This document shows positions 59,223 to 61,863 of a DNA stretch of 64,000 nt, piece after piece; positions within the stretch are counted from its first letter, which is position 1; each line of letters opens with the position of its first letter. The position numbers and the translations under genes were made by a program. The DNA is from Fibrobacterota bacterium. Lineage in GTDB: Bacteria > Fibrobacterota > Fibrobacteria > UBA11236 > JADFYW01. The stretch is from positions 1,151 to 65,150 of the forward strand of contig JBHPJW010000004.1 in assembly GCA_042567505.1 (NCBI GenBank), read 5' to 3'. The notes under the pieces were generated by a model. The model ran no database searches, was not told the DNA's origin, and worked only from the letters and a program-made list of their open reading frames with translations.

Positions 59223-60448
59223 AAATCGTCATTCTCGTACCCGGATTTCCGAAGCTGTCCGAGACCTTCATTATAAATAAATTCCTCGGTCTGCTACGCA
59301 TGGATATTGATGTATCTATTGTTTGCCAGCGCAAAAACACCTCAGACTGGCAATACTTTCCCCAGTTGGCGCGGGACCGGAAACTGCGGAAAAAAATTCA
59401 TGCCATACCTCCCCATGGCAGCGCTTTTCCTGTGGTTTTCTTGTTTCCCTTTGTTTTCTTGTTTGCCCTTTTTGCTCATCCGGCAAAGACCGTAAGATAC
59501 CTGGTCCGCGGAAAAAAGAAATTTGGCCTGTCCTTGATAAAGAGGTTTTATCTGGACGCAAAACTGATTCAAACCTCGCCGGACATTATCCACTTTGAGT
59601 TCGGCGCCCTTGCGGCCAGGCAGATGTATTTGAGTGAACTCTTGAACTGCCGCCTGGTAGTAAGTTTCCGGGGATATGACATAAATTATGTGGGTTTAGA
59701 GGACCCGGGTTATTACACCCGGGTCTGGCGGCAGGCACATGCGCTGCATTTCTTGGGTAAAGACCTCTGGAACAGGGCAAAAAAAAGGGGATGTCCGGAA
59801 AGTAAACCTGTATATTTTATTCCTCCCGCCATTGACACCGGTTTGTTCAATCCCGGCGAAAAGGAGCAGATAGCGGAGCGGGGCACGCCCGAAAGCCCAC
59901 TCAGGATTTTAAGTGTCGGCAGGCTGGAATGGAAAAAAGGCTATGAATTCGCCCTGCAGAGCATAAGAGTTTTAAGGGAAAAAGGCATTCATTGCCATTA
60001 CCGGATAATAGGGACTGGGGAACATATAAATGCTTTAATCTGCGCCCGCCGGCATTTAGAATTGGATTCCTGCGTGGAGATTCTAGGGCCGCTGCAGCCG
60101 GCTGGGGTCAAAAAGGAAATGGAGCGGTCGGACGTGTTTCTCCAGGCATCGGTCTCGGAGGGCTTTTGCAACGCCGTCATGGAGGCCCAGGCCATGAAAC
60201 TGCCGGTGGTTTGCACTGATGCGGACGGACTGGGTGAGAACGTGAAACATGGGGTAACCGGTTTTGTGGTCCCTCGCAGGAGCCCCCGGGCTTTGGCTGA
60301 CGCCATGGAGAAATTGGCCCGTAACCCGTTCCTGCGGCATGAATACGGAGAAGCGGGCCGTAACCGAATTATGAATAAATTTCAATTGAATGACCAAATA
60401 AAACTATTTGCAGATATGTATAATGATGCGGTTAAAGAAAAGTATTAA
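59219..60448 (+). CDS. GT4-family glycosyltransferase (WcaL-like architecture)
   Basis: MKIVILVPGFPKLSETFI N-terminus and ASVSEGFCNAVMEAQAMKLPVVCTDADG. ATGA overlap with the upstream gene. Confidence 0.8.
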   Translation: MKIVILVPGFPKLSETFIINKFLGLLRMDIDVSIVCQRKNTSDWQYFPQLARDRKLRKKIHAIPPHGSAFPVVFLFPFVFLFALFAHPAKTVRYLVRGKKKFGLSLIKRFYLDAKLIQTSPDIIHFEFGALAARQMYLSELLNCRLVVSFRGYDINYVGLEDPGYYTRVWRQAHALHFLGKDLWNRAKKRGCPESKPVYFIPPAIDTGLFNPGEKEQIAERGTPESPLRILSVGRLEWKKGYEFALQSIRVLREKGIHCHYRIIGTGEHINALICARRHLELDSCVEILGPLQPAGVKKEMERSDVFLQASVSEGFCNAVMEAQAMKLPVVCTDADGLGENVKHGVTGFVVPRRSPRALADAMEKLARNPFLRHEYGEAGRNRIMNKFQLNDQIKLFADMYNDAVKEKY

Positions 60449-60487
60449 ATCAAAAGTTAAGGCTCTTTTAAAAAGAGTAAACTATGA

Positions 60488-61204
60488 GTGCGCCAAGCAA
60501 AGCTAATATGAGCAAGCCGGACAATCCGGTACATGTAACGACTAACCACCGGCATGGAACTGAACCGAGAGTATGGTGAGGTAACAAACCATGCGAAGCC
60601 TCGGGAAAGGCCGTTTGTCAGCCACAACGCAAGTGAAGGTATTGAGCCCCGAAATAACTCTCTTTGCACAGGGCCAGGGGTTTCATTTCCCTGAAGCCAA
60701 CAGCGAAGCACACGCTAAAGAAGGTGAGTGTGTTTTCGACGTGCCGGGGTCTGAGTCCGTGGCGGGTAAACGAACTGTTCATATTGGAACTTGGGAGAAC
60801 CAAAGCATTTCAGGAAGCTGTAGAAGAACAGAAGATGTGATGATGCAGTATGCTGCTTTGGTGGTCGGACTAACTCATAGTAGAGGTGTAAATAAGGTAA
60901 TGCTTATTGAGGATAAGAAAGTCCACTCGAAGGGGTTAGCAGTTTCACGCAAAAAGTATGGCAAGGACAATATGCTATCCACAGAGGTAGATAAGGTCAT
61001 ACACAGAAATGGCTGGGTCATAATTTCCACCTACTTTTATATCTGCATGGTACTGGAAACAGACTTATCATACAAGCTTAGCAGGAATAAGCATGTTTAT
61101 AGGGTAACAAATAAATCGTTATGCCATGTAAGGAGTGAGATTGAAGAGCCGGATGTGGGAAATTCACAAGTCCGGTTCTGTGAGGGGCATGGGCTTTCTC
61201 ACAT
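60488..61204 (+). mobile_element. ORF-less group II intron (self-splicing ribozyme); 3' boundary uncertain by about 10 nt
   Basis: 5' GTGCG at 60488-60492 matches the GUGYG consensus. A canonical domain V lies at 61146-61178, a domain VI-like hairpin at 61179-61202, and the sequence ends AT. The ~717-nt length cannot hold a reverse transcriptase ORF. Confidence 0.8.
61146..61178 (+). ncRNA. Group II intron domain V
   Basis: GAGCCGGATGTGGGAAATTCACAAGTCCGGTTC. The 9-bp lower helix runs 61146-61154 with 61170-61178. The AGC catalytic triad is at 61147-61149. A 2-nt AA bulge sits at 61168-61169. The upper helix is GTGG/TCAC around a GAAA-type loop. Confidence 0.85.
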
Positions 61205-61302
61205 GAAAATGAAACTTAAAACATAGGAGAAAGTCACATGTCTACTCGACAGTTCATTATATTGGGGAAAAAAAGAAATTTATCGGTCAAAATGATGAAA
61301 AG

Positions 61303-61863
61303 GTGTTCTGGGATACCTTCGGGATAAAAAAGGTCCAATACGGGTGCGGGAGGAAATTTCTTCATGATTGGGTGAATCTTGACTATATAAACAGGGAAGA
61401 ACTGGAAAAAAACCAAGGATTGAGAGAAGATGATGTATATTACAAAATTGACTTGACTATGAGGCAACCCTTCCCGGACGGCCATTTCGAATACGCTTTT
61501 TCGGAGGATTTCTTAGAGCATCTAAATCAGTCGGACTCTTTGATTTTTCTCTGTGAATGTTACAGGACCTTAAGCAAGGGGGGGGTGCTTAGATTAGGCT
61601 TTCCAGGCCTGGAAAATGTGTTAACATCCCATTTTCCGGAAACAGATTTTAAAAGCGCCTGTTTGTTAAAAGAGCAGGCATATGCCCGTCATCAACACCT
61701 TCATTTTTATTCCAGAAAGGAATTGGAATTAGTGGCCCTGCACATAGGCTTCTCTGAAGTGCGTTTTGCCGATTACAGGATTTCTGAGTTCAAGGAGTTA
61801 AGAGGCCTCGATACCAGAGAAAACCAGAAGAACATGAATACTTACGTTGAACTGATAAAATAA
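61303..61863 (+). CDS. Class I SAM methyltransferase; N-terminus uncertain (possible frameshift at an A7 run)
   Basis: Motif I-like KVQYGCGRKF, FSEDFLEHL and GGVLRLGFP. The GTG start has no clear SD. A strong SD plus ATG at 61225/61238 is in another frame. Confidence 0.6.
   Translation: MFWDTFGIKKVQYGCGRKFLHDWVNLDYINREELEKNQGLREDDVYYKIDLTMRQPFPDGHFEYAFSEDFLEHLNQSDSLIFLCECYRTLSKGGVLRLGFPGLENVLTSHFPETDFKSACLLKEQAYARHQHLHFYSRKELELVALHIGFSEVRFADYRISEFKELRGLDTRENQKNMNTYVELIK

Follow-up and report, generated by a model that had tools for sequence, protein, structure and literature searches.

Group II introns without an open reading frame (ORF) are rare in bacteria and usually occur alongside related introns that carry a gene for an intron-encoded protein (IEP) (PMC4424553), and splicing and mobilisation of such introns in trans by a 'driver' IEP is possible (PMC2882425). 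In ORF-less systems, expression of the host gene depends on splicing (PMC2882425; PMC4424553; PMC12584367). Two other kinds of intron bear on the present case, i.e., the IIB1/CL1 lineage (Avi.groEL type), described as tied to start or stop codons of protein-coding genes with little disturbance of the host gene, and group IIC introns, described as lacking exon-binding site 2 (EBS2) and as placed after terminator stem-loops (both from PMC12584367). Here we analyzed a 64-kb stretch of DNA (hereafter, the window) from contig JBHPJW010000004.1 of a Fibrobacterota bacterium. Its positions 60488-61250 very probably hold a group II intron that is intact, IIB-like and without an ORF, and that lies inside codon 22 of a S-adenosylmethionine (SAM)-dependent methyltransferase gene within a glycan operon.

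Like the ORF-less introns of the Thermosynechococcus elongatus TeI3 family and of Trichodesmium dnaN, which depend on the maturase of a related intron, the window intron combines a complete ribozyme with a domain IV that has no IEP gene; the ORF-less form of its lineage likewise occurs at several sites, and lineage members have related IEP-encoding copies in the same genome (chromosome OY762711.1). However, the IEP lineage differs, being without an endonuclease (En) domain and not CL-like, and the window intron has no recognisable remnant of either the N- or the C-terminal part of an ORF. The relatives used for these comparisons came from a genome scan with a domain V/VI junction signature, which found at least 119 genome loci (labelled L001-L122) in many bacterial phyla and in archaea. 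Whereas IIB1/CL1 introns encode a CL1-type reverse transcriptase (RT) with a C-terminal En domain, the IEPs of this lineage (435-465 aa) have no En domain and are least like the solved CL RT; domain I of the window intron measures only 302 nt and is colinear among relatives, and over the 5' 35 nt the colinearity extends to every one of them. Since the domain I and RT/En features of IIB1/CL1 are absent here, we did not file the intron under that lineage. The B.c.I4-type introns of the Bacillus cereus group likewise exceed a standard domain VI by additional nucleotides close to the 3' end (PMC1865049 and PMC2691827), but their 53-56 nt come after domain VI, whereas the window intron has its additional sequence inside domain VI, as the distal portion of that hairpin, with the branch A at the normal distance of 7 nt from the end; the intron is therefore not B.c.I4-like. 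Group IIC introns, which insert after terminator or attC stem-loops, are similarly specialised, with En-less IEPs and a generic gene-boundary signal as target, and a small hairpin does lie upstream of the window insertion. Nevertheless, because a covarying EBS2 pairing with intron-binding site 2 (IBS2) is present and the relatives' sites are start codons, the window intron is not a IIC intron.

Limits and structure of the intron

An Rfam scan of the whole window at gathering thresholds returned exactly two matches, both on the forward strand and both within this stretch: group-II-D1D4-6 (RF02005) at 60521-60759 (112.2 bits, E=6e-31) and Intron_gpII (RF00029, domains V-VI) at 61144-61250 (53.1 bits, gathering score 40). 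Each model was matched over its whole length and above its gathering score, and neither describes the long domain VI. Considering these hits, the element is real, far beyond chance. Homology to the relatives starts exactly at GTGCG (60488-60492), which fits the GUGYG consensus, and stops at ...CTACTCGAC; the 3' terminus is ...GAC at 61250, an AY-type end. Among the defining features of a group II intron, GUGYG, domains I-IV, domain V, and a domain VI with a bulged A and an AY end were found. A preliminary description, made from the letters of the window, had proposed a group II intron with no ORF of its own that would be transcribed together with the glycan operon. That identification holds on the evidence of covariance models, comparative structure and relatives, and its GTGCG start and its domain V (confirmed by RF00029 and by folding) were correctly placed; its account of the anatomy and of the consequence was a misreading. 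It had also named the covariance-model search reported above as a check, and failure to build domains I-IV as grounds for rejection.

All six domains, these four included, could be placed (Table 1). A consensus fold of 16 complete introns contains 108 pairs in domains I-III, 83 of which are maintained via compensatory changes on both sides, and helices of domains III and IV were found as well; consensus columns of this fold were mapped onto window coordinates to give the domain limits. Domain I contains the RF02005 match, a hairpin with a GUAA loop (60565-60604) and a receptor-like hairpin (60703-60739), and domain III has an internal-loop motif, CAUAGUAGAGG, that is invariant across the lineage irrespective of exon sequence. 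In domain V, a 9-bp lower helix with the AGC triad (61147-49) is accompanied by an AA bulge (61168-69) and a GAAA-type loop. Across the ribozyme core, conserved elements are free of disruptive changes and the helices stay paired in the comparative model.

The 3' end is set by domain VI. In the minimum free energy (MFE) fold of 61140-61260 (z = -6.3), positions 61180-61200 pair with 61227-61250 and A61244 is bulged, and the Rfam alignment pairs the same strands, with A61244 7 nt ahead of the ...GAC end; RF00029 lacks a long domain VI, so the alignment needed a 31-nt insertion. We then compared the basal domain VI helix in 51 distinct sequences, anchored at both ends, with controls in which the partner strand was slid. 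Results showed 95.9% of cells to be paired against 41-49% in the slid controls, all four pairs left free by the search pattern to be compensatory, and the bulged A to be invariant. The A is also bulged at -7 in 45 of 50 full domain VI folds of relatives, and nearly all relatives listed end domain VI with U or C followed by CUACUCGAC, or a close variant. A search of a plasmid collection gave only a short domain V match in Sulfobacillus and an RT-containing relative on Caedibacter taeniospiralis plasmid pKAP298, which has the same domain VI architecture and the same ending, UCUACUCGAC. Since the fold, the Rfam alignment, the relatives and covariation agree on domain VI, the intron ends at 61250 and is 763 nt long. 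The preliminary description had ended it at 61204 (717 nt), taking a GTGAG/CTCAC hairpin for domain VI and finding no bulged A; that hairpin is not domain VI and the true end lies 46 nt downstream. With a normal branch point at A61244, the hydrolytic splicing it considered need not be invoked. Likewise, the Shine-Dalgarno (SD) sequence at 61225, which it placed 21 nt past the intron, is within the intron: the 3' strand of domain VI holds an SD-like AGGAG (61225-29) and an ATG (61238-40), spaced AGGAG-N8-ATG.

Table 1. Features of the window intron and its host gene, with exon-binding site 1 (EBS1) pairings and insertion contexts of relatives. In exon sequences a slash marks the splice site.
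Feature	Position	Strand	Sequence or basis
Exon 1, SAM-dependent methyltransferase	60423-60487	+	ATG 60423 or 60426; MMRLKKSIKSKVKALLKRVNY and first two bases of the Glu-22 codon
IBS2 AAAGAG, SD-like purine tract in exon 1	60472-60477	+	6 Watson-Crick pairs with EBS2
IBS1 core AUGA	60484-60487	+	out-of-frame ATG and one base, inside codons TAT GA/A
Group II intron, ORF-less, 763 nt	60488-61250	+	Rfam matches, homology limits, in-frame exon ligation
Domain I	60493-60794	+	closing helix CCAAG 60493-97 with CUUGG 60790-94; consensus fold
EBS2 CUCUUU	60660-60665	+	6/6 Watson-Crick with AAAGAG 60472-77
EBS1 hairpin	60678-60691	+	stem GGG with CCC, loop UUUCAUUU; UCAU 60683-86 pairs with exon
Domain II hairpin	60795-60866	+	helix 60799-60807 with 60854-60862, many compensatory changes
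Domain III	60870-60939	+	basal helix CUAACUC with GGGGUUAG, covaries
Domain IV, short, no ORF	60940-61143	+	9-bp closing helix 60940-48 with 61135-43 (fold)
Domain V, catalytic	61146-61178	+	RF00029, 53.1 bits, and fold
Domain VI, long hairpin	61180-61250	+	MFE fold, Rfam alignment, covariation, branch A 61244
ORF of 30 codons read from the ATG in domain VI	61238-61328	+	MSTRQFIILGKKRNLSVKMMKRCSGIPSG and stop, out of methyltransferase frame
Exon 2, methyltransferase	61251-61863	+	.../A GTT CAT TAT ATT... = E-V-H-Y-I..., through stop codon
L084 EBS1 loop UCAUUUAC			5' exon GUAAAUGA, 8 bp
L029 EBS1 loop ACUCCAUU			5' exon AAUGGAGU, 8 bp
L105 EBS1 loop UCAUGGU			5' exon ACCAUGA, 7 bp
L036 EBS1 loop GCAAGA			5' exon UCUUGC, 6 bp
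L116 and L070 EBS1 loop UGACCC			5' exon GGGUCA, 6 bp
L072 EBS1 loop CUAUAGA			5' exon UCUAUAG, 7 bp
L121 EBS1 loop UCAUUUU			5' exon AAAAUGA, 7 bp
L061 insertion context			GAAGGAGAATAGGTATGA/
L114 insertion context			CGGGAGGTTACAGCATGA/
L121 insertion context			TTAGGAATATAAAATGA/
L009 insertion context			GAAGGATAATAATATGA/

The interrupted methyltransferase gene

The intron splits codon 22 of the methyltransferase gene, because the ligated exons match the protein family end to end and in frame. Joining 60487 to 61251 gives ATG(60423)...AAC TAT GA/A GTT CAT..., read as MMRLKKSIKSKVKALLKRVNYE/VHYIGEKKKF..., with the predicted ligated junction ...AACTATGA/AGTTCATT... (in longer form, ...GTAAACTATGA/AGTTCATTATATT...). 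Exon 2 encodes a Methyltransf_11 domain (Pfam). With the query begun at 61252, well ahead of the annotated GTG (61303), homologues of 220-225 aa covered 97-98% of it, and they carry ~20 further N-terminal residues beyond that start. Against a profile built from 74 homologues, the spliced 225-aa product scored 291.9 bits, compared with 275.7 for the annotated ORF from GTG 61303, and aligned to profile positions 3-217 with no gap across the junction. No shuffled version of the exon-1 peptide, out of 1000, gave this score (shuffle mean 281.8 with sd 1.4; highest value 288.4), nor did any of 153 other peptides from the window, and 60487/61251 was the sole top-scoring junction pair with GUGCG...AC termini. 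The gene start (60423 or 60426) overlaps the end of the preceding GT4 gene (stop at 60446-48) by ~23-26 nt; the 5' flank is thus methyltransferase exon 1, and not, as the preliminary description had it, a non-coding gap entered 40 nt after the GT4 stop. Since the intron interrupts the coding sequence out of phase, the full-length methyltransferase needs splicing, and splicing would, judging from the sequence, gate its production directly.

Pairing between intron and exon is strong at one site and short at the other. The preliminary description had suggested looking for EBS/IBS pairing with the bases just ahead of the intron; EBS2 and IBS2 pair perfectly, whereas for EBS1 only 4 bp form, between UCAU (60683-86) and AUGA (60484-87). 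The loop of the 60678-60691 hairpin was taken as EBS1 because it covaries with each relative's own 5' exon (Table 1), and the site aligned with EBS2 pairs with its own upstream exon in L049, L085, L019 and L105, to which a UAUUCC/GGAAUA pairing in L121 can be added by eye. The target AAAGAG-UAAACU-AUGA/A resembles a translation start, built out of frame from the methyltransferase codons K-R-V-N-Y-E. A small inverted repeat, pointed out earlier as a hairpin, does exist upstream of the insertion site at 60463-60477.

A second candidate for EBS1, UCAUAGU at 60875-81, pairs 7/7 with the exon and was rejected, as it is located in domain III and invariant despite the unrelated exons of the relatives. 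The window intron and L019, which sit in unrelated host genes, share the 5'-exon octamer AACTATGA/, which is 7/7 complementary to the lineage-invariant domain III motif CUCAUAGU (60874-60881 with 60480-60487), and in both copies only 4 nt of the EBS1 loop pair with the exon. From sequence, this match may be either a coincidence or an extra contact.

The likely course of events at this locus can be outlined. The intron would have reached the site by reverse splicing at a look-alike target and would be removed as a lariat from the operon transcript. Loss of the IEP gene from domain IV would leave splicing either autonomous or helped by a maturase that a full-length sibling copy supplies from another part of the genome. 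The full-length methyltransferase would come from spliced mRNA only; on unspliced RNA, translation of exon 1 would stop at 60504-06 and the domain VI ATG would give only a 30-aa, out-of-frame peptide.

Several observations weigh against an intact, splicing intron. The EBS1-IBS1 pairing of 4 bp compares with 6-8 bp in well-matched relatives and could make splicing inefficient. No IEP-like sequence was found in the 64-kb window by tblastn with nine lineage IEPs, i.e., a maturase is absent there. Protein evidence alone sets the junction to about +/-15 nt (1587 stop-free junction pairs scored), and no intron-less allele was found, a degenerate junction pattern giving 0 matches in metagenomes. Finally, the public annotation takes the gene as unsplit: entry P0001 (NCBI, 'Fibrobacterota bacterium' metagenome-assembled genome, MAG) is a 186-aa protein from GTG 61303 (61303-61863), identical to the window ORF except for the initiator (listed identity 99%), and the intron is evidently unannotated in it.

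The short EBS1 pairing, the missing IEP and the 186-aa annotation are also what one would expect if the element were a stranded, non-splicing relic at an off-target site, with the methyltransferase either a pseudogene or made only in truncated form from GTG 61303. Initiation at that GTG might be aided by translation of the 30-codon ORF, which overlaps it. We regard such a relic as improbable. No stop codon has arisen in the exon 1 frame, and its peptide fits the N-terminus of the family far above chance; the ribozyme core, as noted above, is undisrupted in its conserved elements and paired in its helices, EBS2-IBS2 is a perfect 6 bp, and the truncated form would lose ~39 N-terminal residues, conserved in length, that are found in all close homologues.

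It is far less probable still that the SD and ATG of domain VI translate the downstream gene without splicing, as they apparently do in relatives. Both elements are intact here at the standard AGGAG-N8-ATG spacing, and in relatives the ATG and the host gene share one phase. In the window, however, the frame read from the ATG (61238, 61241, ...) differs from that of the methyltransferase (61249/61252, ...) and meets a stop at 61326-28 after 30 codons, so that the 30-codon ORF is probably a by-product at this site. Exon 2 has a homopolymer of seven A at 61268-61274, in which one extra A would fuse the two frames, and only such a one-base change could join them; a frameshift or 8-A variant joining the frame of ATG 60484 and ATG 61238 was rejected, as the family profile fits the other frame across both the junction and the run. 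Since its ATG is out of frame with exon 2, the window copy gains nothing from a spare start site.

Scarcely credible, lastly, is an intron that lies between genes at 60488-61204, is spliced by hydrolysis for want of a branch A and controls the distal genes by way of the SD at 61225. The sequence does contain a GTGAG/CTCAC hairpin as well as an 'AT' at 61203-04, but the alignment, fold and 51-sequence covariation described above set the 3' strand of domain VI at 61237-61250 with its bulged A, relatives end ...CUACUCGAC, the flanks are coding and come in frame with proper termini only at 60487/61251, and an SD and ATG within domain VI are a feature of the lineage. The evidence thus continues to favor an intact intron that interrupts the methyltransferase gene.

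Loss of the IEP gene

As the preliminary description had noted, neither the element nor the window encodes an RT or maturase: Pfam found none in the three forward frames of the element, and the tblastn search of the window was likewise empty. Domain IV held no ORF remnant by the same two approaches (Pfam in three frames, tblastn with nine IEPs), the one exception being an IEP whose C-terminal end runs into the conserved sequence of domain V. The window intron is colinear with the full-length introns L049, L019 and L105 at positions 1-464 (75-80% identity) and again from ~640 to its end at 763. Between these blocks, the three relatives have IEP ORFs of 435-465 aa (~1.35 kb), whereas the window intron has ~180 nt with no similarity to them. 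The IEP of L019 (446 aa) matches TIGR04416 at 343.9 bits (cutoff 300) as well as RVT_1, with no HNH/En domain, and from its sequence is a bona fide group II RT/maturase. Of the solved group II RTs, the CL RT (6me0) was its weakest match in a PDB comparison, which argues against the CL class for IEPs of this type.

A second ORF-less relative, L121 (774 nt), sits in a different host gene. It shares 77% identity with the window intron in domains I-III and 83% in domains V-VI, and its short domain IV is homologous to that of the window (57% identity, with conserved blocks). Since this short domain IV is common to both copies and they lie in different genes, loss of the ORF predates their split. 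A full-length member of the lineage (L008) is present in a Fibrobacterota MAG. The Sedimentisphaerales chromosome OY762711.1 carries two 719-nt ORF-less copies, 100% identical and each at the start of another gene, and also a full-length copy of 1929 nt whose IEP has 443 aa (loci L009, L014, L048 and L079). These sequences offer a precedent within the lineage for ORF-less copies that would move where an IEP exists, in keeping with what is known of ORF-less bacterial introns (PMC4424553; PMC2882425). All three OY762711.1 copies begin with GAGCG, not GUGCG.

Relatives at translation starts

Complete relatives lie mostly directly after ATGA, i.e., one base past the host start codon, with an SD-like tract ahead (SD-N6-10-ATGA/; contexts in Table 1). 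In a large subset of the listed loci (e.g., L061, L114, L032, L100 and L121), domain VI is lengthened and its 3' strand contains AGGAG-N5-9-ATG, the ATG lying 13 nt ahead of the 3' splice site. Among the 59 non-redundant listed loci with this ATG, the longest exon-2 ORF was in phase with it in 46, compared with 3 and 10 in the other two frames; for 49 listed loci without a domain VI ATG, the split among frames was 19/14/16. For L121, exon ligation yields an N-terminus that resembles that of a cytidylyltransferase, MKKKVYIAMSADFIHPGH. In principle, then, unspliced RNA of in-phase copies would be translatable into the host protein with an MSTR- extension.

IBS2 is often the host's own SD-like tract, 6-7 nt upstream of IBS1 and not adjoining it (the window, L049, L085, L121 and L019), so that EBS2 and EBS1 jointly read an SD-spacer-AUG arrangement; the distance from IBS2 to the splice site differs among copies, from -7..-12 to -13..-18. 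By eye, the GUGAG/CUCAC hairpin of the window (61180-61184 with 61198-61202) is conserved as GUGAGG/CCUCAC in the sub-lineage with SD and ATG, at the same positions in L006, L012, L019, L033, L048, L061, L076 and L114. It would be expected to compete with the long domain VI, exposing the SD and ATG and breaking the branch helix, and the two folds could be a toggle between splicing and translation.

Other sub-groups differ in domain VI. In L018, L025, L029, L034, L055, L063, L092, L097, L107 and L115 it is ~120 nt long with a conserved insert, GUGACACUCY...CGAAAG...GGAGAAACAGGGAAUACAAA, followed by the usual ...AUAUUAUGUCUACUCGAC end. In L015 (first ~120 nt), from a WOR-3 MAG, the distal domain VI and 3' end (CCTCGTGGTGGACTCCCAAAAGGGGTTGGCCACGAGGCCTAC) recur right past the 3' splice site, which may reflect part of a second intron copy in tandem or else an artefact of assembly. 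An archaeal sub-group (Methanosarcinales, ANME and Methanoperedens; L004, L005, L010, L011, L017, L024, L038, L064, L066 and others) has a domain VI of the form GGGGGCUCAUAG...CUAUGAGYYCUACUYGAC, with no ATG at -13 and no frame preference of the downstream ORF. Many archaeal members are at contig ends, which suggests multi-copy elements.

Taken jointly, these features prompt a reading that we offer tentatively, and which is rather doubtful as a whole: the window copy may be an off-target member of an undescribed, specialised group II lineage that homes to translation-initiation regions. Such a lineage, with En-less IEPs, would extend across many bacterial phyla and the Methanosarcinales/ANME archaea; its EBS1 would read AUG and one further base, and its EBS2 often the SD tract 6-7 nt upstream. 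A replacement SD and AUG (AUG UCU ACU CGA C/) in a lengthened, in-phase domain VI might neutralise the insertion by allowing the host protein to be made from unspliced RNA with the MSTR- extension, while domain VI folding (splicing) and ribosome binding (translation) would be mutually exclusive, and ORF-less derivatives might be mobile in trans. In the literature searched, which did not extend to the original lineage descriptions, neither an SD and ATG in domain VI nor ATGA/ targeting by an En-less lineage was found beyond the CL1/IIB1 family, and the novelty of this feature is uncertain. As an element, the window intron is new and unannotated but of a known kind, and the start-codon strategy of its lineage is the more interesting part.

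For annotation, the finding means that a methyltransferase is split by an unannotated intron and that its public product is truncated to 186 aa rather than 225 aa. For the organism, it would make synthesis of the methyltransferase, and hence one methylation step in a glycan pathway, dependent on RNA splicing. [quoted passage not shown] The lineage, in turn, looks like a retroelement whose target, the SD-AUG-AAN gene start, is as generic a signal as a genome offers, and which may spare its host via a spare start site. If it is indeed undescribed, it would add a new specialised lineage to the group II introns, with a built-in and directly testable competition between splicing and translation.

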